Shown one piece after another: positions 1,192 to 52,239 of a DNA stretch of 64,000 nt. Positions within the stretch are counted from its first letter, which is position 1. Every line of letters begins with the position of its first letter. The notes under the pieces were generated by a model that saw only the letters and a list, made by a program, of their open reading frames with translations, was not told the DNA's origin and made no database searches. The position numbers and the translations under genes were made by a program. The stretch comes from an uncultured Bacteroidales bacterium (GTDB lineage: Bacteria > Bacteroidota > Bacteroidia > Bacteroidales > UBA7960), in NCBI GenBank assembly GCA_964614525.1, contig CAZTPA010000009.1, positions 306 through 64,305 on the forward strand. The letters are read 5' to 3'.

Positions 1192-1192
1192 A

Positions 1193-19232: not shown

Positions 19233-19607
19233 CTAAGCCATAACTATCTCATATTCAAGATCTAACTCATCAACAAGTTCTTTCCATGAATCCAGCAAAT
19301 CCTCTTCACCTTCAATATAGTGCCAGTATATTTCCACAGTATGCCCACTGTTTTTATACTCATCTATAAGCTCAAGAATTTTAAATAGATATTTTGAAGA
19401 ACTTGTATTAAAATAATTAACATTAAAATTAACGATCAAAGGTCTGTCTTCATTAAGTGTAAATTCTTTGACCCAATCAGTCAGCGGTTGAAAAAACTCT
19501 ATTGCATTATCAGGATAACTGGTTCCGGAGAAATTTAAAACGCCATTTAAATAATCAAAATTTATCCCAAAGGTTGTTTTTGTAGGAGCTAATATTAATT
19601 CTTTCAT
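19233..19607 (-). CDS. DUF1987 / SiaC-family regulatory phosphoprotein
   Basis: 124-aa ORF: INFDYLNGVLNFSGTSYPDNAIEFFQPLTDWVKEF then NVNYFNTSSSKYLF, the pattern I associate with SiaC-type partner-switch proteins. Confidence 0.75.
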   Translation of the reverse strand: MKELILAPTKTTFGINFDYLNGVLNFSGTSYPDNAIEFFQPLTDWVKEFTLNEDRPLIVNFNVNYFNTSSSKYLFKILELIDEYKNSGHTVEIYWHYIEGEEDLLDSWKELVDELDLEYEIVMA

Positions 19608-19891: not shown

Positions 19892-19907
19892 TGTTAGCGT
19901 GTCGTGG

Positions 19908-22085: not shown

Positions 22086-22403
22086 ATAAAAGCCGATACA
22101 ATTGTTAATAACATTTTTTTTAATAAGAAAATGCGCTTTCTCACTGGTAATAGTCGTCTTATTTATATCGTTTCTAAATAAAATCTTTTCTTCAATCTAT
22201 TTAACAATATTTTTTACGTTTTTTCATTCATATGTAAATATTTAAATATATCTTTACATCATAAAGCTTAGTTAAAGTGTACGATTACATGATATTAAGC
22301 AAACGTTCATAAGTTAAATAATTAAAAAATTGTAATAGCAATTGATTTTTTGTTTAACTTTATTCCATACTTTGTTAAACAACAAATAAGAAAGGAAACA
22401 CAA

Positions 22404-25304: not shown

Positions 25305-26564
25305 TTACAGATTCATTTCATTTTTAATTTTCTCGAAATCTTTAAGAAAAGCGGCATTCGCATTTTGGCAAGAACCTCCAAGCTTTTCTGTAGAAAACTC
25401 TTTATAAAAATCAGGATTAAAATTCTCTTTAGAGCTATACATAAGTGGGATGTTGATTCTAATCCCGGCAACAGGGTTTCCTGCACGATCAAATTTTCCA
25501 ATATTTGGTTTATGATTTTTGATAAACCATGAACATACTCCAAATCTCTCATATATTTTACCCCAGGTATCACCGCTTTTCACAGAATAAATAGTATCTG
25601 GTGGAACAAACAAGGCTTTTTCTGCAGCTAAGTCTGTGTGCTCATCTACTTGTTCCTTAACCTCTTCGGATATTTTTAAATCACTCGAAGGATTTGGGTT
25701 GTGGATAAAAAGATCATATACCATATAAAAAAAGAACAAAGCTATCATACCTATAATTATCATATTTCCGATAGGATGTTTTATTATTCGAGGTAATTTA
25801 AAATTATCAGAAACAATCTTCTTTTTTTCATTTTGCACCGGGGTAAAAGATCTTTCAATATTTTCAATATTATAAAAGGTAATAAGCTGTATAGAAACAT
25901 TTTCCTTTCCACTCAACTGAGTTTCAAGATCAACAAGTCTGCTAACTTTAGTATGTAAAGGCATTGGATCGGAAAGAATAGTTTTTACTGATTTTTCCGG
26001 TATAGTTTCAAGAAACTGTTCCGAACAAATGAGTAACATATCATCGTCAACCGGAATAAAAGGATGCTCGCAAGCTGAAGGAGTAATTATCTTATCAGAA
26101 CCTAATAAAACTTGCTCTTCGTCTTCATCACCTTTTGTAGTATATGCAAGCGGATAAAGCTTTCTACCATTAAAAAAATACAAAGCATTTTCTCCAATAT
26201 TAGAAAAATACACTTTGTTATCTCTTATTAATACGCACAAACATGCTGCTTTCATGCCTTCAAAATTTTCATGTTTATATCCATATTCATGAATATAACC
26301 ACTAGCATAAACTAAGGCATTTACAACTGCTTGTGCAGGATCATCTACAAAATCATTTTCCAAATAATAAGAAACTCTCTCAAGAGCTATTTCGGCAGCT
26401 TTAGCATCTTTTTGTTCATTGCTGTATGCACTGCACAAAATCAAAGCGTAACCATTAGGAGTTTCAAAAGCTCCAACTGTTTCTCGAATTTGTTCGTTAT
26501 CTGAATATTTTTGTGAATGATAAGCGTATTCAAAGGTTTTTAATTTCCTGGTAGCCATGATCAA
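25305..26564 (-). CDS. membrane protein with PP2C-like N-domain (acidic motifs substituted), one TM helix and a C-terminal LysM domain
   Basis: 419-aa ORF. The order of blocks resembles PP2C (YSDNEQ, ILCSAYSNE, SNIGENALYFF, LLICSEQF). TM helix: MIIIGMIALFFFYMVYDLF. LysM: YSVKSGDTWGKIYERFGV. Confidence 0.5.
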   Translation of the reverse strand: MIMATRKLKTFEYAYHSQKYSDNEQIRETVGAFETPNGYALILCSAYSNEQKDAKAAEIALERVSYYLENDFVDDPAQAVVNALVYASGYIHEYGYKHENFEGMKAACLCVLIRDNKVYFSNIGENALYFFNGRKLYPLAYTTKGDEDEEQVLLGSDKIITPSACEHPFIPVDDDMLLICSEQFLETIPEKSVKTILSDPMPLHTKVSRLVDLETQLSGKENVSIQLITFYNIENIERSFTPVQNEKKKIVSDNFKLPRIIKHPIGNMIIIGMIALFFFYMVYDLFIHNPNPSSDLKISEEVKEQVDEHTDLAAEKALFVPPDTIYSVKSGDTWGKIYERFGVCSWFIKNHKPNIGKFDRAGNPVAGIRINIPLMYSSKENFNPDFYKEFSTEKLGGSCQNANAAFLKDFEKIKNEMNL

Positions 26565-37057: not shown

Positions 37058-40000
37058 TTATACTCTAAAACCAATTACAAGTATATCATCAATTTGAAAA
37101 TATTCATCAGTCATCCAATCTTTCAATTTTTGTTCAAGCAATCCTTTTTGCTTCTCCATAGGATTTTTATAAATACTTAATAGCAACTCTTTAAAAGCAT
37201 TTTTACCCATGCTTACTCCTTTTGGGCCGCCAAATTGGTCTCTGTATCCGTCAGAGAAAATATATACAACATCATTGCTTTGCAGCTGAATCTGATGAGT
37301 TTCAAAAGGTCTTTCCTTATGGTGAATCCCGATAGGATTGCGTGTAGGCTTATATTCTGTTAATTCATTATTTCTAATCAGGAATAGAGGATTATTAGCA
37401 CCTGCATAATATAAAACATTGCTTTCTGTGTTTAATGTGCAAAATGCCAGATCCATTCCATCTTTTTGTTCAGCCCTACTGCCGGTCTGTCCCAGTGTTG
37501 TTTTTGTTTTTTCACGCAATTGATCTAATACTGCCGATACATTTTCGGTCTGTTCTCTTAAAGCTACTTCATTTAAAAAAGCAATACCAAGCATACTCAT
37601 AAAAGCTCCCGGAACACCGTGCCCCGTGCAATCTGCAGCAACTATTGACACATAAGGTTCATTGGCTTTCACCCAATAAAAATCACCACTTACAATATCT
37701 CTGGGAACCCAAAAAATAAAACTCTCAGGAAGATATTTCTTTAAGAAATCCTCTTCGGGGACCAATGCATTTTGAATGCGGCTTGCATATCTTATACTGC
37801 TTGTAATCTCATCTTTTTGCCTGAGCACCAGTTTATGTTGCTTTGAAATTTCATTTTTTTGCGCTCTAATTTCTTCCGTTCGCTTTTCAATAATCTTTTC
37901 AAGTTGAATGTTTTTCGCTTTCAACCTCATTAAACTTAACTTCACAATTAACATTATAATAAGTAATGCTAAAATACCATAAGCAATATAAGCAAAGGTA
38001 GTTCTGTACCATGGTGGTAATATTCGAACAACATATGAAATTACTTCACTTTCATTTTCATAAATATCCTTCGCTTTAACAAAGAATATATACTCTCCCT
38101 CTCTTAAATTTATATATTCCTGAGTATTCAATTCAGTCCATTCTGACCAATCCTCATCAAGTCCTTCCAATTTAAATGAATACAATGCTTTGTGGTTATT
38201 TTCAATAAATGGAGATGCAAACTCAAAAATGATTCTATTTGAGGAATACGGAAGCACAATTCTTCGTGGAATTCCTTTCCGATATGGATAATAAAAAAGA
38301 ATAGAATCATTCTTTGTAAGTATTCTGCTAAAATTAATTTTAGGAATATCAGAAAATTTTTCTTTCCAATCAGTATTAACTTTAAGCAAACCATCATCAG
38401 TTGCGATCCATACATTAGCTGAATCAACAGCTGTTAAGTCATAAATTCTACCTGCATCCACAATAGTAAAAGGTTTATTATCAAGATCTTTTAAACTGAG
38501 GCCATAGTGAATTTCATTATCCAAAGAAATCCATGCTTTATTATGCATATATTTAAGAAGCAAAACAGAGACTGAGTCAATTCCTGGTATATCAACATAA
38601 TCAAAAAAACCTTGTTCTCTTTTCGCATTTGAGTCTTCTTGCGCTGAATCATCGTAATCATCTCTGATAAAATGCATTAAACCTGAAGCAACTCCAAAAT
38701 ACACATTCTCTTTATAATTAAATGGCCTGACCCAGGTTTGTCCCAATCCTGTTTGTTGTCCAATATACATATCCATTTCATAAGTATAATCGGGTTTTAT
38801 AAGCACATTCCATGCTCCTTCATTTAAAGTACCAATCCATAAGTCATTTCCATCACCACTATACAAAATATTTTCAGCAATATTTAATGGGTTTAAAGAT
38901 GAAAGTTCTGGATATTCAGCAAGTTTTCTTAATCCTCTTTTTGTAGCATAAACAAACAATCCATTTTCTCCAATTACAAAAAGAAGATCATTTTTCTGAG
39001 AAAAATATATTACGGGAGCATCAATATCTTCAATTATTTTCAGGCCTGCCTTTTCACTCCATACGAACAAACCATCAGAAGATCCAATAATCAAATTATC
39101 ATCAATCGACATCAAACTTTTAACATCAAAATTAGTATTGCCAATTTGAGAAAAATGCTTAAAAACCTTATCATCGGGAATAATATTTTTTTTGAATAAG
39201 CCTATGGATGTCCCGGCAAAAATATCTTCATTATGCTGAATAACAGATTGGGTAGTTCCCCATATTCCGGTGTTATAATCAAACATTGAAATGCCGCTAT
39301 TATAATTTACCATGCTAATACCGGTATTAAGAGTGATCCACAAATTATTATTGCTGTCCTGAAATACTTGATTTATTTCATTATCTCTTAATCCTGAGTT
39401 TTGATCAATTATTTGATATAGATTCCCATCCTGATCAATTATTACAACCCCACTATTTAGAGTTGATAAAGCAATAAGATTATTATGAAGCATTGTCCCT
39501 CCGATAATCTGGGAATTATTCAGATAATCGGTATAATTGCTAAACAAAGGATATATTCCTTTTGATTCTTCTTTAAGAGAATATTTAAAAAGACCTATTT
39601 CCTGGCTAACCAATAAATACTCATTATCGTTGCCGGGAAAAATTCCAAAGATTCCATAATCACTAAATATCTCACCATTTTTAACAAGCTTAAAGTTTTG
39701 ACCGTCGTATTTCATCAGTCCAATTCCTCTTTGCCTGACAAAAAGTTCACCTTCCACAACGAATGCAAGGTGGAAAGAAGTTTGCGGTTCAATAATTTCC
39801 AACGACTCTCCATCCCAAAGGAAAATATTTTCCTGGGCAAAAAACAGCACTTTCTGATTATAATAGTAAATCCTCCATACATTATTAAAAAAGGAATCTT
39901 CCGCACTCAGGGAATCGGAAAGAGAAACATATTCATACTTTCCTGTCGGCTTTGTTTTAAGAAAACCGAACTCACCGCTTGCACCGACAAATATTTCACC

Positions 40001-40300
40001 GGAAGGTGCAGCCATCAAAGAAGTCACATAAACACCATGAAGAGGAATACGAATAGGATCCCAGTTTTCGCCATCATATTGCAGCACGCGATATGCATTG
40101 CCAAAATACATAATACCGTGAAGATCTTCGGTAATTGCCCAGTTTTGAGCACTGCATGAATCCCCATATTCACGCTGAGTATAATTTACAGTTGGTTGTC
40201 TTTCAAAGTGATTTACAAGTGGCTTTGAATTAAGGCTTACTGCATAAATATTCATTGTCGAAATCAGAAAAATGAATAAAGATGCAATTAGTTTGAACAT
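37058..40300 (-). CDS. transmembrane sensor phosphatase: periplasmic beta-propeller plus Y_Y_Y domain, TM helix, coiled coil, cytoplasmic SpoIIE/PP2C domain
   Basis: 1080-aa ORF with a signal anchor and repeated propeller units (LWIGTLNEGAW, VWIATDDGLLKV). Y_Y_Y-like: YSFKLEGLDEDWSEW...EGEYIFFVKAKD. TM: AYIAYGILALLIIMLIV. PP2C core: SGDFYW...AADCTGHGVPGAFMSMLG...FSDGYRDQFGG. Confidence 0.8.
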   Translation of the reverse strand: MFKLIASLFIFLISTMNIYAVSLNSKPLVNHFERQPTVNYTQREYGDSCSAQNWAITEDLHGIMYFGNAYRVLQYDGENWDPIRIPLHGVYVTSLMAAPSGEIFVGASGEFGFLKTKPTGKYEYVSLSDSLSAEDSFFNNVWRIYYYNQKVLFFAQENIFLWDGESLEIIEPQTSFHLAFVVEGELFVRQRGIGLMKYDGQNFKLVKNGEIFSDYGIFGIFPGNDNEYLLVSQEIGLFKYSLKEESKGIYPLFSNYTDYLNNSQIIGGTMLHNNLIALSTLNSGVVIIDQDGNLYQIIDQNSGLRDNEINQVFQDSNNNLWITLNTGISMVNYNSGISMFDYNTGIWGTTQSVIQHNEDIFAGTSIGLFKKNIIPDDKVFKHFSQIGNTNFDVKSLMSIDDNLIIGSSDGLFVWSEKAGLKIIEDIDAPVIYFSQKNDLLFVIGENGLFVYATKRGLRKLAEYPELSSLNPLNIAENILYSGDGNDLWIGTLNEGAWNVLIKPDYTYEMDMYIGQQTGLGQTWVRPFNYKENVYFGVASGLMHFIRDDYDDSAQEDSNAKREQGFFDYVDIPGIDSVSVLLLKYMHNKAWISLDNEIHYGLSLKDLDNKPFTIVDAGRIYDLTAVDSANVWIATDDGLLKVNTDWKEKFSDIPKINFSRILTKNDSILFYYPYRKGIPRRIVLPYSSNRIIFEFASPFIENNHKALYSFKLEGLDEDWSEWTELNTQEYINLREGEYIFFVKAKDIYENESEVISYVVRILPPWYRTTFAYIAYGILALLIIMLIVKLSLMRLKAKNIQLEKIIEKRTEEIRAQKNEISKQHKLVLRQKDEITSSIRYASRIQNALVPEEDFLKKYLPESFIFWVPRDIVSGDFYWVKANEPYVSIVAADCTGHGVPGAFMSMLGIAFLNEVALREQTENVSAVLDQLREKTKTTLGQTGSRAEQKDGMDLAFCTLNTESNVLYYAGANNPLFLIRNNELTEYKPTRNPIGIHHKERPFETHQIQLQSNDVVYIFSDGYRDQFGGPKGVSMGKNAFKELLLSIYKNPMEKQKGLLEQKLKDWMTDEYFQIDDILVIGFRV

Positions 40301-40335
40301 AAAATAGTATTTGAGGAAGCCTTTTTCAGAATAAT

Positions 40336-41139
40336 TTACATGTCAATATTTTCTTTGATCCACTCTTCAAGGCTCTCACGATCAGGCGTACCATAGAACT
40401 CATTAATAAAAGACAGAGCTTCGTTTACTTTTTCCTCATATGATTTCTCTTCGAAGACTTCAAAAATTATAGTAATCTCATTAGCAAGTTCCTGGTTATC
40501 AATAATTACAGGTTCAAAACTACCCAATAATGTATTTTTGTTACCAAGATTTCTTTGCATATACCAAACTTCCATTTCAGAAACAGCATCTTGTTCTATT
40601 GAATTACCGTCAACCTTAAAAATCTCATCTTTGTTTAAAATGAGATAATTATCCTTAAATGATAATTTTTTGTTTATTTTCTCATTATTGTAAACATATT
40701 GGATATAGAAGAAATTATCTTCATCCATTGGAAAAGCATCGGGATTCATTTTAAGGTTAACTTTATCAAAAAGCACATATTTACCATTAAAATGATTCTT
40801 CATATCCAGGACTGTCATTAGTTCTGAGCTTCTGGAACTGATATTACTCATGGCGGGAGTATAACTTGCTTTAGCGTAAGCCAGGTCAGTATTGTCGGGT
40901 CTGAGGACAAAACGGCCATTTTCAGGACTAATTACTGTTGCAATAGAATTATAGGTTTTAAAAACAAGAGGATCTTCCTCATTAAACACGGTGCCTCTTT
41001 CGAGCATAGCATTTGTTTTTTCCAATAAGATTGTACCATTAACTCTTATAGTGTGATAATCCTGAGCATTAAGGTTAGTGCTGCATAAAAAAGATGCAGT
41101 AACTATAATTCCTGTTATAGCTTTAATAATTGTTTTCAT
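40336..41139 (-). CDS. secreted protein of unknown function
   Basis: 267-aa ORF with a signal peptide ending NLNAQD. I recognise no family. It lies between the CHAT gene (79-nt gap) and the PP2C sensor gene (35-nt gap) on the same strand. Confidence 0.5.
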   Translation of the reverse strand: MKTIIKAITGIIVTASFLCSTNLNAQDYHTIRVNGTILLEKTNAMLERGTVFNEEDPLVFKTYNSIATVISPENGRFVLRPDNTDLAYAKASYTPAMSNISSRSSELMTVLDMKNHFNGKYVLFDKVNLKMNPDAFPMDEDNFFYIQYVYNNEKINKKLSFKDNYLILNKDEIFKVDGNSIEQDAVSEMEVWYMQRNLGNKNTLLGSFEPVIIDNQELANEITIIFEVFEEKSYEEKVNEALSFINEFYGTPDRESLEEWIKENIDM

Positions 41140-41218
41140 GTCTGAATATTTTTGTAATTGTTTTTTAAGAGGATAAATTTACAAATTAGTATAATAAATT
41201 CCTAAATATTCTTAAATT

Positions 41219-44200
41219 TTATTCAATAAGTACAAAAGCAGCCCAAAAAAACGGGTCATATTTGCTTCTCATAATCTTTTGTGTTTCAAAAAAAGCCTCA
41301 TGTAAATCATTCTTATGTAACAATAATTTATAGAAGTTTCTCATAAACTCCTCTGTTTCATTATCCGGCACTTTCCACAAACTCATTATCATGTGATTTG
41401 TTCCCGCCATTTTAAAGGCTCTTTGCAAACCATACACACCTTCACTGCCTTTGATTTCACCAAGTCCGGTCTCACAAGCCGACATAACAACGAGTTTATT
41501 TTCTCTCATATCGATATTAATAACTTCCAATGCAGTCAATACGCCATCATCTCCATTTATTTCCTTTGAGCCTGACCAATAATCATTAACACCGGCAAAT
41601 ACCAATCCCGATCTCATAAGAGGATTATTGTTATTGACGAAGTTCTTGTGTCCAAAACCGGGCGTTCCTGCTCTAAAAACCACATCATCATAAATCACTT
41701 CAGATGCGACTATTTCTTTGATTTTTTCAGGATCCGGAAAAAAGAAACCGTGCGTAGCAACATGCAATAATTGACTATTTTTTGCTAAATCCTTAAAATT
41801 CTCTTCGGTTGCATTTCTGCCGGTTTTAGTTATTGTGTTCGGAGCTTTTGACGTTGCAATAGTTTTAATATTATTAACCTCATCCAAAGTACCCGGCAAA
41901 TATGCCCACGACATGTCATCAGACTCTATTGCGTAATCAATACCGCCAAATAATGTCAAGCGGGTTTCTTCATTAATACTAAAATCAGATTCGGTGCCAA
42001 CATATGCTGTTGTACTTAGATTGAACAAGTTATAATCATCAATAATAAAATGATCTCCCTCAGTACTAATAGCTGAAAAAGCTATCTTATGTAATAAGCC
42101 GGATGCTGATAAATAAACATTATCAGTATGATGAAGATAGCCTTCAAGTGGTTTCCAAATAATATCATACAAGTTTGAAACTGTAGTGTATCTTTCACCA
42201 TAAATACTGCTGATATACTGATAATTATTACCACCGTACTGACTTAATACATCACTAAGCAATTCTTCCTTGAATAAAGATATCATAGCAGGAAAATCTC
42301 TTTCAGGCTTTATAATAAGAGCGCAATATAAAATTTCATCATTAGAATTTTTAAAGTGAGTGAATTCAACAGCAGCTTCGTTAGGTTTCAAACTTTCTTT
42401 TACTGTTTGCCATGATATAGCAATGCTTTTTTCGAACTCATTAAACTCATTTGAATTTCTAACCAGGAATCTTTCTAATTCATTTGCTTTTTCTTCAAGT
42501 TCAGAAAGATCTGCCTCTCTTTCATCAGCAGCTAATGTGTACAATTCTGCAATATTTTGCTTGAGTTGTATCCAGTTATTGAATCTTGTTATCAAGTCCT
42601 CATCATTGCTTGACAATATAGCATTTCTCATAGCTGAACTTGACTTCAGCAACAGGCCTTTATTTCTTAAAAGATTATCATAAACATTGCCGCTTATAGC
42701 AGGATTTATATGCTGATACTTAAGAGCAAAGTCATTAAAGCGATCAAAATCTTCTGCCACAGTTTCAAAGAATTTTTCCTTTTCACTTTCAGAAAGAATA
42801 GAAAAATTCCTGGTAATTTCATCATGATTCATTTCAATAACCTGCAAATAATATTTTTCAGCCTCTTCGAACTTATTCGTAATATTATATGCCCAGGCTA
42901 ATTGCCTGCATGCCTCTCTCAAAGTATTTAAATATCCGCCGTCTTCAGAAATCATACGACTTTTATCTGCGAGATTAATTGCTACATTATATTCACCTTC
43001 TTCTATCTTAAGTGCTGACAAGCTTGCCAGCACCATAGCTTTTCCGTGTTTATCATTAATTTCTTCATAAATATCAAGAGACTGAGAATAATAATCCACA
43101 GCCTTTTGGAAATCTCCCTGGAACCTGTGAATATTCCCCATATTTAAAAGGCTGGCAGCAAGTCCTGACCTATCATTTGCACTAAACTTAATATTAAAAG
43201 ATTTTTGATAATAATCACTCGCTGTAGAATAATCGCCGGCAATTTCATAAATAACACCCAGATTATTATAACAATATGCTATTGCATCCTTTTTGCCCAA
43301 TTGCTCATAAATCAGAGTAGCTTTAAGGTAAGAGTTCTCTGCTCTTAGCAAATCACCCAGTTGCCTAAAAACCACACCCATATTATTGTAAATTGCAGCC
43401 TCTGCCTCTCTGTTTTCCATTTTATCGGCAAACTTCAAGGCCTCTTCATATAAATCAATTGCTTTAGGAAGGTCACCATAGATTTCCTGAACATTTGCTA
43501 AAGCATTCAGGCAGGATGAAGCCATGTTCATTTCATCGTTTTCCCTGAAGATCAATAATGCCTTCTCATAATTTTCAATAGCAAGTTTAAACTGTGTTTC
43601 CTGGCGAAACAAATCGGCCAGGCCGTAATAAGACTCAGCCACAATATTATCATACGGTTCTAAATCAGAATTTATATTCTTATTATAAAACTCTTTTGCT
43701 TTGTAAATATTTTTTTCTTTTTCGTAAGTCTTTGCAATAATGTTATTGATTTTAGCAACTTCTGGGATATTATTCATATCCAAATAATCATTTTGAGCTT
43801 TAATGAAATATTCTCTGGCCTCACTATACTTTTCTGCCTGCACCAACACATCGCCAATGCTCATATTTGCTCGCGTAATAAGTATTGGGTCATTAAGCTC
43901 TTTTCCCAGTTCAAGATATTCATTATAATATTGCAAAGACTTATCTACCTCACCCATATGTGAGTATATATTACTTAAGTTGAGCAAGCCATCAAACAGC
44001 ATTTGCCCCTGCCCCGTCTCCTTTGCAAGTTCAACAACAATTTTCCAGGCTTCTACACATTCATTATAATTACCCAAATTATAATGAATAATAGCAATAT
44101 TATTCAGAGCAAGAACTTCATAATTCTTATTTCCAACACTTCTGCTATATTCCAGATATTTTGAATAATATTCGTATGCCTTATTATATTCATGATTATC

Positions 44201-44992
44201 ATAATAGTTAGATCCTAAATTAGAATATATCAAACCTAAATTTTCAGTCTCATTTCTTTTGAGACTTTCCTCCAATGACATTTCCCAATATTTTATAGCC
44301 TTATCTGTTTCGTTCAATTTTGTATAAAGCATTGCAATATTAATAATCTCACTAACGGTTTCAATAGGCATATTTGATTCCTGTTGCAATTCCAGCAAGG
44401 TTTGATAATAATAAGCTGCTGCATAGTAATTACCCATATTCGCATATAATGCGCCAAGATTACCCTTGCAATAAATCATACCATCAGTATCTTCAAGCTT
44501 TTTATTGTATGCCAGGGAAATTTCAAAATACTCAATAGCTTTAAAATAGTTTCTGTTTTTAGCAAAAAATACAGCAAGATTATTAGAACAATATACAGCC
44601 AACTTAAAATCCTTAATTAAATCTGCTATAATAAGAGCTTTTTTAAGAAAAGCTTCTCCATTATCCTTATCGTTTTTTTGAAGATAAATTAATCCGGATT
44701 CGGCTAAGGATAATGACACAAAATACTTTTCCGGTTCTGATGCGTTTTTTTTCCACTTTTCAAAGAAATCATTATCATTAATTTTTTGAGGAAGAATCTT
44801 AGAATAGTAAAAAAGTGCAGAATCCGGATTTGAAGTTTCTAATGATTTTGCTTTTTCAAACTTTTGCTGCAATTTCTGCGGATTATCTGCAATGTCATAT
44901 TCATCAAAAGAATTGGCTTTGGCGCAAGCAGAAGCTATAAGTATAGCTGCAAATACTGAGCATAAATATTGAGTAAAAAGGGTTTTGCTCAT
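41219..44992 (-). CDS. TPR-repeat CHAT-domain (caspase-like) protease, probable lipoprotein
   Basis: 1257-aa ORF. The signal peptide has lipobox-like ASAC. A long TPR array follows (e.g. YNKAYEYYSKYLEYS, LPKAIDLYEEALKFA). The C-terminal CHAT domain has His in LLHVATHGFF and Cys in LVVMSACETGLGE. Confidence 0.8.
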   Translation of the reverse strand: MSKTLFTQYLCSVFAAILIASACAKANSFDEYDIADNPQKLQQKFEKAKSLETSNPDSALFYYSKILPQKINDNDFFEKWKKNASEPEKYFVSLSLAESGLIYLQKNDKDNGEAFLKKALIIADLIKDFKLAVYCSNNLAVFFAKNRNYFKAIEYFEISLAYNKKLEDTDGMIYCKGNLGALYANMGNYYAAAYYYQTLLELQQESNMPIETVSEIINIAMLYTKLNETDKAIKYWEMSLEESLKRNETENLGLIYSNLGSNYYDNHEYNKAYEYYSKYLEYSRSVGNKNYEVLALNNIAIIHYNLGNYNECVEAWKIVVELAKETGQGQMLFDGLLNLSNIYSHMGEVDKSLQYYNEYLELGKELNDPILITRANMSIGDVLVQAEKYSEAREYFIKAQNDYLDMNNIPEVAKINNIIAKTYEKEKNIYKAKEFYNKNINSDLEPYDNIVAESYYGLADLFRQETQFKLAIENYEKALLIFRENDEMNMASSCLNALANVQEIYGDLPKAIDLYEEALKFADKMENREAEAAIYNNMGVVFRQLGDLLRAENSYLKATLIYEQLGKKDAIAYCYNNLGVIYEIAGDYSTASDYYQKSFNIKFSANDRSGLAASLLNMGNIHRFQGDFQKAVDYYSQSLDIYEEINDKHGKAMVLASLSALKIEEGEYNVAINLADKSRMISEDGGYLNTLREACRQLAWAYNITNKFEEAEKYYLQVIEMNHDEITRNFSILSESEKEKFFETVAEDFDRFNDFALKYQHINPAISGNVYDNLLRNKGLLLKSSSAMRNAILSSNDEDLITRFNNWIQLKQNIAELYTLAADEREADLSELEEKANELERFLVRNSNEFNEFEKSIAISWQTVKESLKPNEAAVEFTHFKNSNDEILYCALIIKPERDFPAMISLFKEELLSDVLSQYGGNNYQYISSIYGERYTTVSNLYDIIWKPLEGYLHHTDNVYLSASGLLHKIAFSAISTEGDHFIIDDYNLFNLSTTAYVGTESDFSINEETRLTLFGGIDYAIESDDMSWAYLPGTLDEVNNIKTIATSKAPNTITKTGRNATEENFKDLAKNSQLLHVATHGFFFPDPEKIKEIVASEVIYDDVVFRAGTPGFGHKNFVNNNNPLMRSGLVFAGVNDYWSGSKEINGDDGVLTALEVINIDMRENKLVVMSACETGLGEIKGSEGVYGLQRAFKMAGTNHMIMSLWKVPDNETEEFMRNFYKLLLHKNDLHEAFFETQKIMRSKYDPFFWAAFVLIE

Positions 44993-45087
44993 CTTAGGTT
45001 TTTGTCTTTGTTTTTTTAGAAGTATGTGAAATAATACCTGATGTCAGATAAAGCTAATTTTAACAAAAAAGCAATATAATTCATAAG

Positions 45088-45095
45088 CAAAATTA
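45088..45095 (-). promoter_or_regulatory. candidate -7 box (TAATTTTG on the minus strand) for the CHAT operon
   Basis: Plus-strand CAAAATTA lies about 96 nt upstream of the CHAT gene start. Confidence 0.3.
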
Positions 45096-45232
45096 GTTGT
45101 TTTTTATTAAAAAAATTGAATAGCATACAAATTTAGTAATTATCCAAGTTTTATTTCAACAAACGGATTTGTTTTGGCATCAAGGTTTTAAGATTTTATA
45201 TAAACTTATTTAATTAAAACAAATTAAAATTA

Positions 45233-45240
45233 TAAATTTG
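45233..45240 (+). promoter_or_regulatory. candidate -7 box TAAATTTG for the OmpA-family gene
   Basis: Exact TAnnTTTG match 62 nt upstream of ATG 45302. Confidence 0.4.
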
Positions 45241-45301
45241 CGGTAAGTAATGTATGTATTTATATGTTATTTCTGTGAAATTATAATTTAAATCTTTTAG
45301 A

Positions 45302-47371
45302 ATGTTTGCGATAAAGAAAAAAGCATGTTTATTAAAATTGATTATCATTTTAATATGCTTTTTCTACATATTTCCTGCATCATTATATGCACAGATTGAC
45401 TCTATCCCTTCGATGCTAAACACCTGGAATACTGTAAAGGCTTTTACAATAAATTCTGATGAAGATTACATGCTTGTTATAATAGAGCATCAGGAAAAAG
45501 ATCAGATATTTGAAACAAGGTTAGTTAATAAGAAATGGTCTGATCCGGTACCAATAAGCGCAATTAACAATTTCGGAGGAGGCAAAGCAAATATTGGAGG
45601 TCCTTCTTTTAATTATGATGCCAGTGAATTATATTTTCACGCAGACTACTCAGATGCAATTGGTGGTTTCGATATTTATTATTCAAACAAAACACGAACA
45701 GGATGGAGTACTCCCATAAATATTGGGAGCATAATAAATTCTAAAAATGATGATATGTATCCATCTATTGCCGTTGGGGGAGAGAAAATATATTTTTCAA
45801 GAAGAAATGCAAATGCTGATGCAAAGAAACCCAGAAGGACACCTGATTGTCAAACGTTTTTTTCATCCCATAAAAACACATCCCGTGAATGGAGCACTCC
45901 AATACCCATGCATGACGAAATCAACCGGGCTTGCGAGTATAGCATCTCGATTGCTGATGATAATAAAACTATTTTCTTTTCTTCAGTAGATCAGGATAAT
46001 TATCGTGATGGATATAATGTTTATTATGCAAAAGAGATTTTGAAAAATACATGGATGCTTCCTGCAATAATTCCAAATATTGCTTCGGAAGAAACAAATA
46101 TTAACCCGCGAATAGTTGGTGATAACATTTATTTTTTAAGAGAAACTGAAACAAGAAGAACTAAACTCGGGACAATATACGCTGCCAAACTACCTGAGAA
46201 TGCAATACCTGAACCCACAATAGTTTCAAGAGGAAGAATAATCAACCAGGCAGTAAAAAGGCCTGTTCGAGCAAAACTAACTGTATTTGACCCCACAACA
46301 CTGGCAATTATAGGAGAATTTTACTCTGATAGTCAAAGCGGAGAATACAAAATTCCATTATTAGACAATAAAAACTATATAGTTGACGTGCGAAATCCCG
46401 GCTTATCATTTGCCAGCTTTCAGCTTGACTACAGAGAAGAAGAAAAGATTACCGGTCCAACTCTCATTGAACTTTTTGACGAAACCAATCTGATTATTTC
46501 TGTTTATGATGGAGAAATATTCAGACCTTTAGAAGCAGAAATATGGGCAGAAATAATTTCTGATAATGACAAAAAAATTAAAGCTGTAAAAAATGCAGAG
46601 GGAAAATATGCACTAAAACTTCCCATAGGCCATAATTACTTAATTAGAGCAGAAGCAAAAGGATTTAAAAGTAATGAACTGGAGTTTAATCTAAGAGGAG
46701 ATATTGTATTTTCAAAATTTGAAAGAAACATTCCATTAGAACCTATAAAAGTTCCATTTGAAATAACCATTGCCGACTATCAAACAAAAGATGCAGTAAA
46801 TGCAGATGTTTTTATTACTAACTTAAACAGGGAGGAAACAATATTTTTCTCAGCCCAGGATATAAAAGATGGGAAAGTAACTGCGATGCTTCGTGAAGGA
46901 GACCAATATGAATTCACAATTAAAGGTGCTGAAGGTTATTCTTTTCATAATCAAGTGGTAAATGTTTCCGGAGAAGAAGAATCGAATGTTGAAGTAGATC
47001 TTGTTTCACTAAAAGAAGAAACTACTATTAGGCTTAATAATATACACTTTGCTTCCAATTCGGCAGAACTGAACTCCGAATCTTTTGCTGAACTGAACAG
47101 AGTTGTTGAGCTGATATTTACGAATCCAAAAGTTGTATTAGAAATAGCAGCCCATACTGATGACGTTGGAAGCGATTCTTATAATATGATGTTGTCAGAG
47201 AGAAGAGCACAATCGGTAGTTAATTACTTGCTTGACAATGAAGTTCCCGGAAATAATATTATTGCGAAAGGTTACGGGCTAAGAAATCCGGCAGTACCTA
47301 ATACATCAGACGAAAACCGTGCTCTGAACCGACGGGTTGAATTTAAAATTATAGAAGTAAAAAAAGAGTAA
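45302..47371 (+). CDS. OmpA-family protein with N-terminal PD40/TolB-like propeller repeats and CarboxypepD_reg-like middle region
   Basis: 689-aa ORF with a signal peptide and PD40-like units (ELYFHADYSDAIGGFDIYYS; DMYPSIAVGGEKIYFSRR). C-terminal OmpA domain: IHFASNSAEL...AHTDDVGSDSYNMMLSERRA...NRRVEF. Confidence 0.8.
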   Translation: MFAIKKKACLLKLIIILICFFYIFPASLYAQIDSIPSMLNTWNTVKAFTINSDEDYMLVIIEHQEKDQIFETRLVNKKWSDPVPISAINNFGGGKANIGGPSFNYDASELYFHADYSDAIGGFDIYYSNKTRTGWSTPINIGSIINSKNDDMYPSIAVGGEKIYFSRRNANADAKKPRRTPDCQTFFSSHKNTSREWSTPIPMHDEINRACEYSISIADDNKTIFFSSVDQDNYRDGYNVYYAKEILKNTWMLPAIIPNIASEETNINPRIVGDNIYFLRETETRRTKLGTIYAAKLPENAIPEPTIVSRGRIINQAVKRPVRAKLTVFDPTTLAIIGEFYSDSQSGEYKIPLLDNKNYIVDVRNPGLSFASFQLDYREEEKITGPTLIELFDETNLIISVYDGEIFRPLEAEIWAEIISDNDKKIKAVKNAEGKYALKLPIGHNYLIRAEAKGFKSNELEFNLRGDIVFSKFERNIPLEPIKVPFEITIADYQTKDAVNADVFITNLNREETIFFSAQDIKDGKVTAMLREGDQYEFTIKGAEGYSFHNQVVNVSGEEESNVEVDLVSLKEETTIRLNNIHFASNSAELNSESFAELNRVVELIFTNPKVVLEIAAHTDDVGSDSYNMMLSERRAQSVVNYLLDNEVPGNNIIAKGYGLRNPAVPNTSDENRALNRRVEFKIIEVKKE

Positions 47372-47428
47372 TCTGTTATAATTTATAAACTAACAAGACT
47401 AATTATCTGAATACAGAATCACAAAGCA

Positions 47429-49696
47429 ATGAAAAAAACAAGAATATCCATAAAAAAATCATTTTGGCTTCTATTACTTGTGTTATTATGCTGTGTTTCC
47501 AGAGCCTCAGCTCAAAAGATTGATTATGACGAACTGATTGAAAACCTCAATTCATTAACCAACGAACAAGCTTTTTACAGATTATTCAAATACCAGTCAC
47601 AAAATCCTACTTTTGCTAATGCCTACATCCAATTGGGAAATGTGTGTGAAAATATTTTTAAAGATTTAGATCCCTTACAGGATATTGAGCTTATAAATTA
47701 TTGGGCTTCAAATGCTGAATTGTATTACCAACTGTTTCCCGCATATCTTGAGAGTGGAGAAGTAAGAAGAAACAGAAGTTATTATACAAATATTCCTGTC
47801 GAGACCTCGGGCAAGAGGCTTGATAATGAAGATGTTTTAGCATACACGAAAGAACAAATTGAATATTGCAAAAATTACAAAGACACAGTATTATTAATTT
47901 ATTCAACTTTTGAAAAATCAAAAGACCATTACAATAAGTGTGTGCGTATTTTTAATGAAATTAATCAAAACTATGATAATTTAAATGAAGTTTTACTACA
48001 AACAGATGATGAGTTCATCACTACCCTGGATGATTTGCAATTTAATTTCAGCGCCTGTATAAATGAGTTTAAAACCTACAGATCTGTATTAAATAAGTTT
48101 TCAGAGAAATACGAAAATCAAGAATATATTTTAAAAAAAATTGAAACATTCAGGCTTGACGGATTAACAAATAGCAATTTTCTCCTTGACACATTTTATC
48201 TTTGGGATTATGACGATTGGACCAAAAGTTTCTTAGATGTATATAAAGATGAAATAGTAGGGCTAAGAAACGAAATTAGTTCTATTAATAAACTATTTAA
48301 AAACAACACAAATCTAATAAATCAGCTTGATTATATTGATCATGAAATGAAACTGGATGTATTTGACGACTTGTTTCTTTTTAGATTAGGTAAATATGAT
48401 AATAATTCGCTGATTCGCGAACTATTTACTTATCTCGAATCAAGACAGAAATATTTGCTTCTAAGTAAAAACATCCTTAATAATCCGGCAGACAGCACAG
48501 CTGAATTAATGAACAAAAAACTCAGGTATTACTACCGGCTTGCAGGAGATCTTAATCATGCCAAAACAAACCTTAGCGATTTTAATAAAGCAATAACACC
48601 AAAAAAAGTTATACGCTTCAAAGAGTTCTTTAACACAAACTATAACGGGGAAGAAGGTTTAAAAAAATACTACACAGAGCAAATATACTTTTTGCGTAAA
48701 AATTTCAGCGCAAATTTGAAGAACCTTAAAAGCTACTTGGAAAACGAACAAACACTAAGACAAAAATATGATTATGCTAATTATAATAATAATCAGTCAA
48801 TCCCATTATTTGCTGTTGATAAAAGCCACGAAAACTTCAACTCCCTAAAATATATAACAAGAAAGATAATATACGAAGAAGGCAAACCTACTTATATTGC
48901 AGGTTATATCAAAAACAATGATAAGCAAACCAGTGCATATGCTGCTAAAATTTCGGATAATATTGATATAGAGTGGATTACTGAATTTAACAATAAAACC
49001 GAGGATACAAATAAAACTCAAAACTCTGAAATAATCACTTCTTACAGTAACGGTCTATGGGCAATAATATCAGAAAAAGGATTAATAAGTGAAGTTGACA
49101 GCCTTGGGATTGAGCAAGAAAGAGAGTTGCTTACAAATATTTTAGTTCATTTGGATAATGCAGGTGAAGAAATTAGCAGAATTAACATTGGAGAAGATAA
49201 TAAACCTTTTTATCTTAAGTATGACGAAATAAATCAACTCAGCATTTTTGGTTTAGGCAAGCAAGACAGATACATTCCTGATGCTTTTACATCTATAAGT
49301 TTATCACAAATTGATTCTACAAATAATATTAATTGGAACATCGACATTAAACTTAAAGGCCAACTTGTAGATATTGTAAGAGCTGAAAATAAGCATATTG
49401 CATTTTTCAACTTTCAGCATTATGATATAAATGGCAATTCTCAAATCACTAAACAAATGGGAGATAACTGGTCATTTGTGATGCTTGAAATTTCAAATGA
49501 TGGTGAAATAACAAAACTGACTCCGATAATTACTGAAGAAAGCATATTTATAAGCAAAGTGTTTAGCATATCGAGCGATGAAATTAGCTTAATTGGCCAT
49601 TCCGGATATCCTGATGACATTGGTGAAGATCTCCACTTTTTAATTGTCTCTTCCGATTCTGAAATTATTTTCAGCAACATCGAATCATCAGAATAA
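47429..49696 (+). CDS. secreted protein of unknown function
   Basis: 755-aa ORF with signal peptide LLLLVLLCCVSRASAQ and Asn/Tyr/Lys-rich composition. I recognise no family. Confidence 0.5.
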   Translation: MKKTRISIKKSFWLLLLVLLCCVSRASAQKIDYDELIENLNSLTNEQAFYRLFKYQSQNPTFANAYIQLGNVCENIFKDLDPLQDIELINYWASNAELYYQLFPAYLESGEVRRNRSYYTNIPVETSGKRLDNEDVLAYTKEQIEYCKNYKDTVLLIYSTFEKSKDHYNKCVRIFNEINQNYDNLNEVLLQTDDEFITTLDDLQFNFSACINEFKTYRSVLNKFSEKYENQEYILKKIETFRLDGLTNSNFLLDTFYLWDYDDWTKSFLDVYKDEIVGLRNEISSINKLFKNNTNLINQLDYIDHEMKLDVFDDLFLFRLGKYDNNSLIRELFTYLESRQKYLLLSKNILNNPADSTAELMNKKLRYYYRLAGDLNHAKTNLSDFNKAITPKKVIRFKEFFNTNYNGEEGLKKYYTEQIYFLRKNFSANLKNLKSYLENEQTLRQKYDYANYNNNQSIPLFAVDKSHENFNSLKYITRKIIYEEGKPTYIAGYIKNNDKQTSAYAAKISDNIDIEWITEFNNKTEDTNKTQNSEIITSYSNGLWAIISEKGLISEVDSLGIEQERELLTNILVHLDNAGEEISRINIGEDNKPFYLKYDEINQLSIFGLGKQDRYIPDAFTSISLSQIDSTNNINWNIDIKLKGQLVDIVRAENKHIAFFNFQHYDINGNSQITKQMGDNWSFVMLEISNDGEITKLTPIITEESIFISKVFSISSDEISLIGHSGYPDDIGEDLHFLIVSSDSEIIFSNIESSE

Positions 49697-49792
49697 AATA
49701 TTAGTTTGCAAAAGAGAATATACTATTAAGGAAATTAAACTTTTGTTTGACAAATTCAGTGAAACTTTGAGTTTATTTTCATTTAATCGCAT

Positions 49793-49800
49793 TAATTTTG
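49793..49800 (+). promoter_or_regulatory. candidate -7 box TAATTTTG for the TPR-PP2C gene
   Basis: Exact TAnnTTTG match 76 nt upstream of ATG 49876. It overlaps the TTG start used by the ORF track, which argues against that start. Confidence 0.4.
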
Positions 49801-49875
49801 TCGTTTTATATGATATTCATAAAAAGCAAAAACAATATCACCCTGAAATATAATTCTAAATTAATATCCCACAAA

Positions 49876-52239
49876 ATGAAACATTTTGCCTCTTTAATAA
49901 TATGCGTATTTTTTTTCACAATAAATTCGAACGCTCAAAATCAAAATAAACTTGACTCATTACGTAATGAGCTCAACAAAACAAAGAATGAAGAAGATAT
50001 TTGCCTTATATATTCGCATATTGGAGATATATACACTTATAACAATGCTGATTCAGCAATCTTTTACTTTGAAAAAGCAATTGAAATTGCTGAAGAAACA
50101 AACTATGAAGAGGGCGCTTCTCAGGCTATAGGTAATTTAGGAATTGTGTATCATTTGCAGGGTGAGACAGACATTGCTCTTGAATATTATCTTGAAGCAC
50201 TAACACTAAGAGAAAAACTTGATGACAAAGAAGGGCTGGCAGTATCATATAATAATATTGGAATCATTTATCAAAGCCAGGGAAGTTATGCTTTGAGCAT
50301 GGAATTTTCAGAAAAATCCCTGGACGTCAACATTGAATTAGGTGATTCGATAGGAATGGCAAGATCATATAATAATATTGGGAATACATATTTTTACCGT
50401 GGAAATTATGATAAATGTATTGAGTATTTTTTTAAAGCATTGGATATAAGAGATAAGATCAATGACTTAGAAGGGGCTGCAGCGAGTTATTCAAACATAG
50501 GCCTTGTTTACCAAAACCAAGAAAACTATGATAATGCTGTTGAATATTTGCTGAAAGCTCAAGAAATTTACGAAGAACTTGAAGATGAAAAAGGCCTTTC
50601 TGTTGTGTTTAATAATCTTGGCAATATCCATTCAGATAACAAAAATTATGATGAAGCAATTGATTATCATAAGAAATCTTTAAGAATAAAAGAAAACATC
50701 GGAGATTCTCGTGGAATATCTTCCAGCTACACAAACATTGGTAATGTATATCGTGATCAAAAAAAATATGATAAAGCAATTGCTGAATATATGAAAGCAT
50801 TAAATATAGATAAAAAATCAGGAGATTTGCAAGGACAAGCGATTATATATACAAACATAGCCGAGCTTTACACAACACTGATTGACAAGTCGCAAGGTTT
50901 GGAACTAGAATCTAATATTAATGCAGCTATTGAATATGGACTTAAAGCATATAATATTGCTATTGAAATCGGAGCCTTACCAGTGCAAAATAATAGTGCA
51001 GAAAAATTACAAATTACATACAAAAAAACAGGTGATTATAAGAAATCTTTAGAATTTGCAGAGATATATATTGCAACAAAAGATGAAATGTTTAATGAAG
51101 AAAAAACTAAAGCTCTTGCAGAAATGCAAACAAAATATGAAACAGAAAAAAAGCAGCAAGAAATTGAAAAACAACAACTAACAATTGAAAAGCAAGAAAT
51201 AGATAATCGCAGACAAAAAAATCAGAGAAATTTCTTTATAGCAGGCTCTGTGCTAATGGCAATGATGGTATTAGTTGTATATAACGGATACAGACAAAAA
51301 AAACGGAGAAATAATATTATAACAGAGAAAAACGCATTATTAATTGAAGCTAATGAAGAAATTCATGCACAAAAAAATGAAATCGAAGCCCAGCATGATA
51401 TGGTGATTAAACAAAAAGAGCATATTGAAATTCAAAAAACCAAAATTGAAGACTCAATTATATATGCAAGAAGAATTCAAAATGCTGTGCTGCCAAAAGA
51501 GCAATATGCTGAGAATCTCTTAGGTGAACACTTTGTAGTATTTTATCCAAAGGATGTGGTATCAGGTGATTTCTACTGGACAACAAATGTGAATGAGTGG
51601 ACGGTAGTTGCTGTAGCTGATTGCACCGGACATGGTGTTCCGGGTGCTTTTATGAGTATGCTTGGAATTAGCTTCCTGAATGAAATTGCAAGAAAAAAAG
51701 AGGTTAATGACCCTTCAAAAGTTTTAAATGCACTTAGAGAAGCAGTTATAGATGCTCTTGACCAAAAATCAAAAAAAGATTCTCAAAAGGACGGCATGGA
51801 TATGAGTTTAATTGCAATAAACAATAAAACTAATGAATGCCACTGGGCAGGCGCTGGAATACCTTTGTGGATTCTAAGAAAAAATGACATTAATAAAGAG
51901 TTTCCAGATAAAACACAAATGATTGAAGTAATAAAAGGGAACAATATGACACTTGCAATTAGTCCTAAAATGAATGATTTTACCTGCCATAAAATTGATA
52001 TCAGTAAAGGTGACCGGGTTTATATGTTTAGTGACGGACTGGTAGATCAATTTGGCGGACCGCAAGGAAAGAAGTTTATGTCTAAGAATTTAAAAACTAT
52101 CCTGGCTAATACAGCAAATAATACGATAAATGAACAACATGCAGAAATAGAGAAAGCATTAGATGAATGGATGAACCCAAAAGAAGGAAGAAGCTATAAC
52201 CAAATAGACGATATAACAATGATTGGTATGGAGTTATAA
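49876..52239 (+). CDS. transmembrane sensor phosphatase: periplasmic TPR domain, TM helix, coiled coil, cytoplasmic SpoIIE/PP2C domain
   Basis: The probable start is MKHFASLIICVFFFTINSNAQ (signal peptide). TPR units: SYNNIGIIYQSQGSY and similar. TM: FFIAGSVLMAMMVLVVY. PP2C core: SGDFYW...VADCTGHGVPGAFMSMLG...FSDGLVDQFGG. Confidence 0.8.
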   Translation: MKHFASLIICVFFFTINSNAQNQNKLDSLRNELNKTKNEEDICLIYSHIGDIYTYNNADSAIFYFEKAIEIAEETNYEEGASQAIGNLGIVYHLQGETDIALEYYLEALTLREKLDDKEGLAVSYNNIGIIYQSQGSYALSMEFSEKSLDVNIELGDSIGMARSYNNIGNTYFYRGNYDKCIEYFFKALDIRDKINDLEGAAASYSNIGLVYQNQENYDNAVEYLLKAQEIYEELEDEKGLSVVFNNLGNIHSDNKNYDEAIDYHKKSLRIKENIGDSRGISSSYTNIGNVYRDQKKYDKAIAEYMKALNIDKKSGDLQGQAIIYTNIAELYTTLIDKSQGLELESNINAAIEYGLKAYNIAIEIGALPVQNNSAEKLQITYKKTGDYKKSLEFAEIYIATKDEMFNEEKTKALAEMQTKYETEKKQQEIEKQQLTIEKQEIDNRRQKNQRNFFIAGSVLMAMMVLVVYNGYRQKKRRNNIITEKNALLIEANEEIHAQKNEIEAQHDMVIKQKEHIEIQKTKIEDSIIYARRIQNAVLPKEQYAENLLGEHFVVFYPKDVVSGDFYWTTNVNEWTVVAVADCTGHGVPGAFMSMLGISFLNEIARKKEVNDPSKVLNALREAVIDALDQKSKKDSQKDGMDMSLIAINNKTNECHWAGAGIPLWILRKNDINKEFPDKTQMIEVIKGNNMTLAISPKMNDFTCHKIDISKGDRVYMFSDGLVDQFGGPQGKKFMSKNLKTILANTANNTINEQHAEIEKALDEWMNPKEGRSYNQIDDITMIGMEL

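Follow-up and report, generated by a model that had tools for sequence, protein, structure and literature searches.

The window analysed here is a 64,000-nucleotide (nt) stretch of DNA from an uncultured Bacteroidales bacterium of the lineage UBA7960 (contig CAZTPA010000009.1, positions 306 to 64,305 of the forward strand). Its positions 37058 to 52239 carry a cluster of six open reading frames (ORFs) in two divergent arms. All six were confirmed at the coordinates given by an earlier model-made reading of the bare sequence, referred to below as the original prediction, and the gaps between neighbouring genes measure 79, 35, 309 and 57 nt. The minus arm consists of ORFs of 1257, 267 and 1080 amino acids (aa), with spacings of 79 and 35 nt as originally reported, and the plus arm of ORFs of 689 aa (45302-47371), 755 aa (47429-49696) and 813 aa (49798-52239). 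The five genes from 37058 to 49696 very probably constitute one functional unit located in the cell envelope. Their arrangement recurs in distant genomes, and is therefore not a product of chance. The features of the locus are as follows.

37058..40300, minus strand: transmembrane phosphatase of 1080 aa (Y_Y_Y-PP2C), with Pfam matches to SpoIIE (5.5e-19), Y_Y_Y (8.6e-12) and Reg_prop (5e-5)
40336..41139, minus strand: secreted 267-aa protein of an unnamed family (p267), without a match in Pfam, NCBIfam or PADLOC
41219..44992, minus strand: secreted TPR-CHAT caspase-fold protease of 1257 aa, with Pfam matches to CHAT (E 1.3e-53) and to multiple TPR families
44993..45301, no strand: AT-rich divergent intergenic region of 309 nt, with Bacteroidota-type -7 motifs (TAnnTTTG) towards both arms
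45302..47371, plus strand: secreted scaffold protein of 689 aa (OmpA-protein), with a Pfam match to OmpA (7.2e-19) and a sub-threshold match to CarboxypepD_reg
47429..49696, plus strand: secreted 755-aa protein of an unnamed family (p755), without a match in Pfam or NCBIfam
49876..52239 (listed ORF 49798-52239), plus strand: neighbouring sensor (TPR-PP2C), assigned by Pfam and NCBIfam

Pfam and NCBIfam agreed with the domain calls of the original prediction (TPR-CHAT, Reg_prop/Y_Y_Y-SpoIIE, OmpA and TPR-SpoIIE), and the 267-aa and 755-aa products had no match in either collection. The proposal that the whole set is targeted to the envelope was also supported. All six products have a hydrophobic N-terminal segment, and signal peptides are kept across all five families of the unit (the protease, p267, Y_Y_Y-PP2C, the OmpA-protein and p755). 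A strict lipobox was absent from all six proteins. The flanking genes are housekeeping genes, among which rpsF, rplI and a SpoU methylase gene border one side and genes for ApbE and a CDF transporter border the opposite side. The borders are sharp, and the G+C content is uniform. The housekeeping flanks and the uniform composition indicate that the cluster is a resident chromosomal locus.

Conservation of the neighbourhood was assessed with a p755 profile, which was scanned against one genome per GTDB species. The scan yielded 60 loci, cited below by L numbers where needed, and these were annotated by tblastn with domain-level queries. The loci came from environmental and gut Bacteroidales metagenome-assembled genomes (MAGs) labelled Rikenellaceae, Tenuifilaceae, Perlabentimonas, Marinilabiliaceae and Paludibacteraceae, and a few were labelled Chlorobi. 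A propeller/CRD/OmpA gene was found directly upstream of p755 in 55 of the 56 species-level loci with enough sequence. The full divergent five-gene layout, with Y_Y_Y-PP2C, p267 and TPR-CHAT on one strand and the OmpA-protein and p755 on the other, was present in 12 of the 42 loci whose upstream flank measured 9 kb or more, and p755 identities there were 36-58%. L005/L020 provides an example with precomputed Pfam labels. The neighbourhood is thus conserved well beyond this genome, and the condition that the original prediction had named as refuting it, genes scattered independently in relatives, did not hold. Overall, the OmpA-protein/p755 pair is the universal core, and the protease with p267 and the Y_Y_Y-PP2C phosphatase are recurrent but optional add-ons.

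The links between these genes were also preserved when the gene order changed. In L028, a single strand carries in succession the genes for a secreted TPR-Peptidase_C14 protein, a homolog of p267 (hhalign probability 98.4%, E 4.5e-15), the OmpA-protein and p755, and L029 and L034 resembled this locus by tblastn. In L001, p267 is followed by Y_Y_Y-PP2C and then by a convergent CHAT gene. In L006, the gene directly upstream of Y_Y_Y-PP2C encodes a secreted C14 protein of 261 aa, and five Chlorobi-labelled loci show the OmpA-protein, p755 and Y_Y_Y-PP2C in direct succession on one strand. Each pairwise link (protease-scaffold, protease-p267, p267-PP2C and p755-PP2C) was seen in at least two gene orders.

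Domain fusions connected the scaffold with the caspase fold. The L006 ortholog of the OmpA-protein (50% identity, residues 11-514) has a C-terminal Peptidase_C14 domain that replaces OmpA, and a search with the N-terminal 491 aa of the scaffold found that 10 of 68 clusters were caspase (Peptidase_C14)-fused. The caspase-fused loci had the order C14-fusion, WD40-OmpA, p755, and no CHAT gene was nearby. A signal peptide and intact AGHG and DAC.SG motifs were present in all C14 variants. These data indicated that the protease has been replaced non-orthologously, CHAT by C14, with the design of TPR plus caspase fold being kept. The existence of natural scaffold-caspase fusions argues for physical closeness of scaffold and caspase.

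The sixth gene, which the original prediction had counted as a member of the unit, did not share this conservation. TPR-PP2C was found downstream of p755 only in L008, and the other 11 full-layout loci lacked it. L008 keeps all six genes and continues to match the window downstream, with ApbE, CDF and the gene after them at 62-90% identity. As a close relative with the same downstream housekeeping genes, it does not count as independent evidence. We therefore concluded that TPR-PP2C, which recurs only in this relative, is not part of the system. The gene also has an upstream gap of 179 nt with a promoter-like motif of its own. This motif, TAATTTTG, overlaps the TTG at 49798 that had been taken as the start codon, so that the ATG at 49876 (MKHFASL..., beginning a signal peptide) is the more likely start.

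Several loci with the OmpA-protein/p755 pair had features of separate interest. In pair-only gut Bacteroidales loci (L007/L043 at 19762-21893 and L042 at 9280-10176), genes for a split TPR protein (217 aa) and a SpoIIE phosphatase (497 aa) lie 5-9 kb downstream. A HisKA_3 kinase gene is located divergently upstream of the pair in L007. Typical Bacteroidales pairs also occurred in bins titled Clostridium sp. CAG:343, Bifidobacteriaceae, Pseudobutyrivibrio or Eggerthellaceae (L049, L054, L056, L059 and L065), and these contigs are probably mis-binned or mislabelled.

The 1257-aa protease is composed of a signal peptide, a TPR/helical scaffold of ~900 aa and a CHAT domain at residues 939-1256. 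The CHAT domain (PF12770, clan CD) scored 182.8 bits, against a gathering cut-off of 24 bits. The catalytic dyad is intact, with H1081 in the motif ATHG and C1173 in SACETG. Both motifs were kept in 20 of 20 CHAT orthologs, and the N-terminus was signal-peptide-like in the same number. A search of solved structures in the PDB gave no sequence match for the CHAT half. The original prediction had described the protein as a lipoprotein. This label is unsupported, because no lipobox is present and the Cys within the signal peptide is not conserved among the 20 orthologs. Two tandem CHAT genes take the place of one on the divergent arm in L018 (~400-4750) and L024 (~1-4150). Their CHAT domains are 46-59% identical to that of the window, and they represent a local duplication of the protease.

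From its N-terminus to its C-terminus, the OmpA-protein comprises a propeller region of PD40 type, repeats of a CRD-like beta-sandwich and an OmpA_C domain of the peptidoglycan-binding kind. It had originally been labelled PD40/OmpA. The OmpA half of this label stood, and the PD40 half was undetected in the window protein and was detected in homologs only, from which the propeller was inferred. The NCBIfam matches to CHU_0125 and PorE were far under their cut-offs. In the PDB, the profile matched OmpA_C domains, among them that of PorE (6top) at 1.7e-24. Since the PorE domain was solved with a peptidoglycan fragment (6TOP), this resemblance suggests that the OmpA-protein is probably bound to peptidoglycan. 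Its partner p755 has homologs in 80 clusters, every one of which is named hypothetical. The AlphaFold2 model of p755 (pLDDT 89) shows a long-helix domain (~33-445) and a C-terminal beta-propeller (~449-750). A Foldseek search of the PDB returned only generic propeller matches with template-modelling (TM) scores of ~0.26 or less, and the PDB profile search was empty.

The size of the p267 family was counted as clusters at 50% identity. There were 43 close clusters, and a profile search of 1.84 billion representatives extended the family to 1,116 clusters, 319 of them at E <= 1e-30; nearly all were standalone proteins of 255-285 aa. Seven members are extended at the N-terminus, and no Pfam domains were found in them, so they offered no informative fusions. 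The AlphaFold2 model of p267 (pLDDT 87) consists of two β-sandwich domains and a C-terminal three-helix bundle. The fold search of the PDB with Foldseek gave generic Ig-like matches alone (TM score ~0.2), and the PDB profile search was empty. With only generic matches (TM scores of at most ~0.26) and empty profile searches, no structure-based lead to a function was obtained for either p267 or p755.

In the Bacteroidales loci, p267 adjoins the gene for Y_Y_Y-PP2C, that for the caspase-fold protease, or both. The slot of p267 is filled by the 261-aa Peptidase_C14 protein in L006, which raised the idea that p267 might be a degenerate caspase. This idea was rejected, as p267 had no BLASTP similarity to the C14 protein and its model is a β-sandwich with a helical bundle. 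The p267 family has a second, independent conserved setting in Crocinitomicaceae. In Crocinitomicaceae/Putridiphycobacter MAGs (L003, L004, L070, L071 and L072; ~7100-8900 or 9180-10810), p267 forms a tandem pair. The gene order there is a cbb3 oxidase cluster, MerR, the two p267 genes, guaA, a LysM protein gene and a PKD/CHU_C protein gene.

The Y_Y_Y-PP2C protein runs from a signal peptide through a periplasmic Reg_prop/Y_Y_Y sensor, a transmembrane helix (766-796) and a coiled coil to the SpoIIE/PP2C domain. TPR-PP2C is built in the same way, with a signal peptide, a periplasmic TPR region resembling the FimS sensor, a transmembrane helix (476-498), a coiled coil and a SiaA-like PP2C domain. 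The transmembrane, coiled-coil and PP2C modules of the two proteins are 38% identical over 334 aa, in line with the paralogy suggested originally, and the sensor domains are unrelated. The metal-binding motifs of PP2C are present in both. In each protein one further transmembrane helix is followed by a K/R-rich stretch, which supports the original view that the PP2C domains face the cytoplasm. The profile of Y_Y_Y-PP2C matched 6k4e (SiaA, E 2e-30) in the PDB over the PP2C domain, and 4a2l and 3v9f over the sensor.

A further gene of the window is relevant to the phosphatases.

19233..19607, minus strand: SiaC-family (DUF1987) protein of 124 aa (Pfam SiaC 2e-30), 17.5 kb from the cluster

The original prediction had offered this gene as an example of a partner encoded elsewhere, and its product proved to be a real member of the SiaC family. 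SiaA (6k4e) is the closest solved relative of the PP2C domain, and with a SiaC-family gene on hand a substrate of SiaC type appears reasonable. The 19233-19607 protein may thus represent a candidate substrate class for the SiaA-like PP2C. No SiaC homolog was found in 72 related loci, so the gene is unlinked to the cluster in relatives. It stands at the head of a minus-strand group (17666-19607), followed by genes for a 298-aa protein with DnaB_C/AAA_25 only, which has no helicase N-terminal domain, and for a DUF2148 ferredoxin-domain protein. No SiaB-type kinase gene is nearby, and the context is unusual for a SiaC-like phosphoprotein.

Inside the cluster itself there were no kinase, STAS or SiaC genes, as had been stated at the outset. 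The domain scan covered ~36 of the ~46 non-overlapping window ORFs of at least 110 aa, and no SiaB kinase, SiaD cyclase or GGDEF protein was found among those scanned. A linked kinase, STAS or SiaC partner was found neither in these ORFs nor in the 72 related loci.

The divergent intergenic region contains a TAnnTTTG motif on the plus strand at 45233, 61 nt ahead of the ATG at 45302, and two on the minus strand at 45088 and 45128, which are 95 and 135 nt ahead of the ATG at 44992. Since the window as a whole has 1.6 such motifs per kb, these copies are weak evidence. The Rfam search of the 309 nt gave no match, and the repeats found were at the level expected by chance for AT-rich DNA, none of them meaningful. 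A regulatory RNA or operator in this region was rejected on these grounds. Scans for sigma-70 promoters and terminators gave results no better than those for shuffled sequence, and no terminator-like site was present within the 79-nt and 35-nt gaps of the minus arm.

Comparison with known systems showed familiar parts in a new combination. Both window PP2C domains are closest to SiaA of the SiaABCD system of Pseudomonas aeruginosa (SiaA, PP2C; SiaB, kinase; SiaC, DUF1987; SiaD, cyclase), which was also the top NCBIfam match. The window phosphatases are likewise membrane-anchored PP2C proteins with an extracytoplasmic sensor part, and the contig carries a SiaC-family gene. However, they scored 186 bits (Y_Y_Y-PP2C) and 157 bits (TPR-PP2C) against the SiaA equivalog model NF038263, whose cut-off is 700, and only the PP2C/coiled-coil part aligned. 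Their sensors are Reg_prop/Y_Y_Y or TPR, unlike that of SiaA. SiaABCD includes no protease or OmpA scaffold, and neither the cluster nor its flanks hold adjacent SiaB, SiaC or SiaD genes.

The second likeness is to PorE (PG1058), a periplasmic lipoprotein that binds peptidoglycan and belongs to the T9SS (type IX secretion system). PorE has a four-domain TPR-WD40-CRD-OmpA_C architecture and lipoprotein acylation, and several non-lipoprotein PorE-like paralogs are known in Bacteroidota (PMC7192894). The OmpA-protein shares with it the propeller, the CRD-like beta-sandwich and the OmpA_C-like domain in equal order. In contrast to PorE, it has no N-terminal TPR domain and no lipobox, and it scored 131 bits against NF052230, which has a 600-bit cut-off. 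Its partners are p755 and a caspase-fold protease rather than T9SS genes, and in some lineages its OmpA domain is replaced by Peptidase_C14.

The protease resembles Csx29 of the type III-E CRISPR Craspase and HetF of Anabaena in its N-terminal TPR scaffold, C-terminal CHAT domain and His/Cys dyad. Csx29 provides a precedent for a TPR-CHAT enzyme with a role in signal transduction, as a protease whose substrate is encoded by a neighbouring gene. Unlike Csx29, the window protein would act in the periplasm, given the signal peptide conserved in all 20 orthologs. The cluster also differs from Craspase in that no gRAMP/Cas7-11, Csx30, Csx31 or CRISPR array is present, and PADLOC and Rfam gave no such matches; the neighbours are instead p267, the PP2C sensor, the OmpA-protein and p755. 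The Y_Y_Y-PP2C sensor is like those of the Bacteroides hybrid two-component sensors (4a2l, 3v9f), with a periplasmic Reg_prop beta-propeller and Y_Y_Y followed by one transmembrane helix. The output is different: SpoIIE/PP2C is the sole cytoplasmic domain, and HisKA/HATPase, receiver and AraC domains are absent.

A full-text literature search found no characterised system that combines these parts, and turned up only a statistical survey from 2012 (PMC3501461). In this survey TPR and WD40 were the commonest partners of prokaryotic caspase homologs (metacaspase/orthocaspase), N-terminal signal or transmembrane segments were frequent in these homologs, and OmpA-domain genes were found in 14 metacaspase operons. 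The survey is statistical and defines no system, and p267, p755 and a link to PP2C are not described in it. A caspase-fold protease with TPR/WD40 and OmpA neighbours is common to the survey and the window, and what is shown here is the specific five-gene module and the replacement of CHAT by C14. Tests for other systems pointed the same way. The Pal models of Tol-Pal gave 62 bits against a 125-bit cut-off, with no adjacent tolQRA genes. Genes with STAS or HATPase_c_2, as in RsbU/SpoIIE partner switching, were absent from the cluster, its flanks and the related loci examined. A known anti-phage defence system was rejected, as PADLOC gave nothing specific. Thus, the cluster combines a transmembrane PP2C similar to SiaA, a tether similar to PorE and a protease of the TPR-caspase-fold design, all of them known parts, with two uncharacterised families, and literature and family tests both agree with the original prediction that no characterised system matches.

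Taken together, these features suggest that a periplasmic protease module is tethered to peptidoglycan and coupled to a transmembrane phosphatase of SiaA-like type, a composite mechanism that we regard as evenly poised between right and wrong. According to this mechanism, the OmpA_C domain would tether the propeller/CRD protein to peptidoglycan, so that together with p755 it would form a periplasmic scaffold. A TPR-armed caspase-fold endopeptidase, TPR-CHAT here and elsewhere TPR-C14 or a scaffold-fused C14, would act on this scaffold. The p267 protein may serve as an accessory of the protease, whether as substrate, adaptor or inhibitor. The periplasmic Reg_prop/Y_Y_Y domain of the phosphatase would sense the state or a product of the module and set the activity of the cytoplasmic SiaA-like PP2C. 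The substrate that the latter then dephosphorylates would be a Ser/Thr phosphoprotein whose gene lies outside the cluster, perhaps the SiaC-family protein of 19233-19607. The downstream TPR-PP2C would be a separate sensor, merely next door.

A bolder version, which we put forward tentatively and consider rather unlikely to hold, is a previously unrecognised trans-envelope relay in Bacteroidales leading from a periplasmic caspase to a phosphatase. The protease, docked by its TPR arm on the OmpA-protein/p755 scaffold, would cleave a dedicated periplasmic protein, for which p267 is the prime candidate. The Reg_prop/Y_Y_Y-PP2C would read the cleavage state and reset a cytoplasmic Ser/Thr phospho-switch.

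Several points weigh against the composite mechanism. Every mechanistic step rests on gene neighbourhood, and no locus links a kinase or phosphoprotein substrate to the cluster. In three loci that bear a protease (L028, L068 and L069), no PP2C gene lies within 10 kb, and ~30 gut/rumen Bacteroidales loci carry the OmpA-protein/p755 pair alone; signalling through Y_Y_Y-PP2C is therefore not obligatory for the core. The Crocinitomicaceae homologs of p267 occur in their other conserved context without protease or phosphatase. In addition, all relatives are MAGs, and the export signals were called by hydrophobicity and sequence inspection.

A rival explanation is a non-signalling machine for envelope maintenance or processing, loosely comparable to Tol-Pal or PorE-type tethers with an added clan-CD protease. 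The peptidoglycan-anchored scaffold would hold in place a caspase-fold endopeptidase for maturing, trimming or degrading proteins of the periplasm or the outer membrane, and Y_Y_Y-PP2C would be an independent sensor, co-regulated or co-located because it answers to an envelope cue that the machine shares. The scaffold pair is far commoner than the phosphatase, which was near the module in about 17 loci as against 55 of 56 for the pair, and the protease-bearing variants with no nearby PP2C gene fit this explanation. So do the PorE-like propeller/CRD/OmpA_C architecture of the scaffold, PorE being a structural tether (PMC7192894), and the OmpA-domain genes of the metacaspase operons (PMC3501461). 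However, Y_Y_Y-PP2C joins the module in two arrangements that are unrelated to each other: in one it shares the divergent arm with CHAT and p267, and in the other, seen in Chlorobi-labelled MAGs, it comes directly after p755. It also stands behind the small C14 gene in L006, and in the window it is merely 35 nt from p267. This recurring linkage is hard to explain other than by a functional tie of the phosphatase to the module, and we consider the non-signalling machine rather unlikely.

A periplasmic conflict or defence module seems still more doubtful. Here a caspase-fold effector with TPR and propeller sensors would detect an attack on the envelope, whether by a phage, a predator or an effector from a competitor, and would respond by proteolysis while PP2C carried the signal inward. 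It is typical of conflict systems in bacteria that CHAT and C14 proteases have TPR or WD40 partners (PMC10907252), and the modular architecture is shuffled across lineages, with non-orthologous replacement of the protease family. Against such a role, PADLOC-DB v2 gave only generic TPR and MotB/OmpA-domain matches, and the locus lacks mobile-element genes as well as effectors of the NTPase, nuclease, TIR or any other kind. Type III-E Craspase is a further instance of a CHAT conflict system, and, unlike in the known CHAT defence systems, all parts of the present cluster are exported. The flanks are housekeeping genes with uniform GC content, and gene order and identity are conserved in a vertical-looking pattern within Bacteroidales. 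Finally, a six-gene system with two phosphatase outputs, which the paralogous PP2C modules and the retention of all six genes in L008 would favour, and the opposite extreme of coincidental adjacency are both very hard to sustain, the former in view of the restriction of TPR-PP2C to a close relative and its own upstream gap, the latter because recurrence at 36-58% identity, together with the domain fusions, excludes it for five genes.

Other parts of the window were also annotated. Overlapping genes at 19908-20602 on the minus strand encode a 104-aa protein, in which GSFAQG...DIDIAL resembles a nucleotidyltransferase motif, and a 133-aa HEPN protein (Pfam 2.3e-17); the pair looks like a HEPN/MNT toxin-antitoxin module. 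At 21195-22085 (plus strand) lies a gene for a MerR regulator with B12-binding_2, similar to the light- or B12-responsive CarH/LitR, which adjoins an ECF sigma factor gene at 22350-22913 (plus strand). A 419-aa ORF at 25305-26564 (minus strand), between genes for a 2-hydroxyacid dehydrogenase and an rRNA adenine dimethylase, had no Pfam match at E <= 1e-5. At 9652-12888 (plus strand), a gene for a 220-aa CarbopepD_reg_2 protein is followed by one for an 835-aa CarboxypepD_reg/Plug TonB-dependent receptor; a pair of this type is also located near the caspase-fused locus L069 (1-2147).

CHAT enzymes and orthocaspases have mostly been studied as cytoplasmic effectors of death or defence. In the cluster described here, an enzyme with an intact active site is consistently exported and is tied to a cell-wall anchor and a transmembrane phosphatase. 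The replacement of CHAT by C14 and the scaffold-caspase fusions provide natural experiments on which partners matter. The p267 family, with ~1,100 clusters and no Pfam model, and p755, with no named relative, gain a structural outline and a testable context. If the coupling of a tethered periplasmic protease to the phosphatase is true, it would add the periplasm of Gram-negative bacteria to the places where regulated proteolysis of caspase type occurs. It would also give a first functional handle on the abundant, unstudied Bacteroidota proteins that consist of a periplasmic sensor, a transmembrane helix and a PP2C domain.

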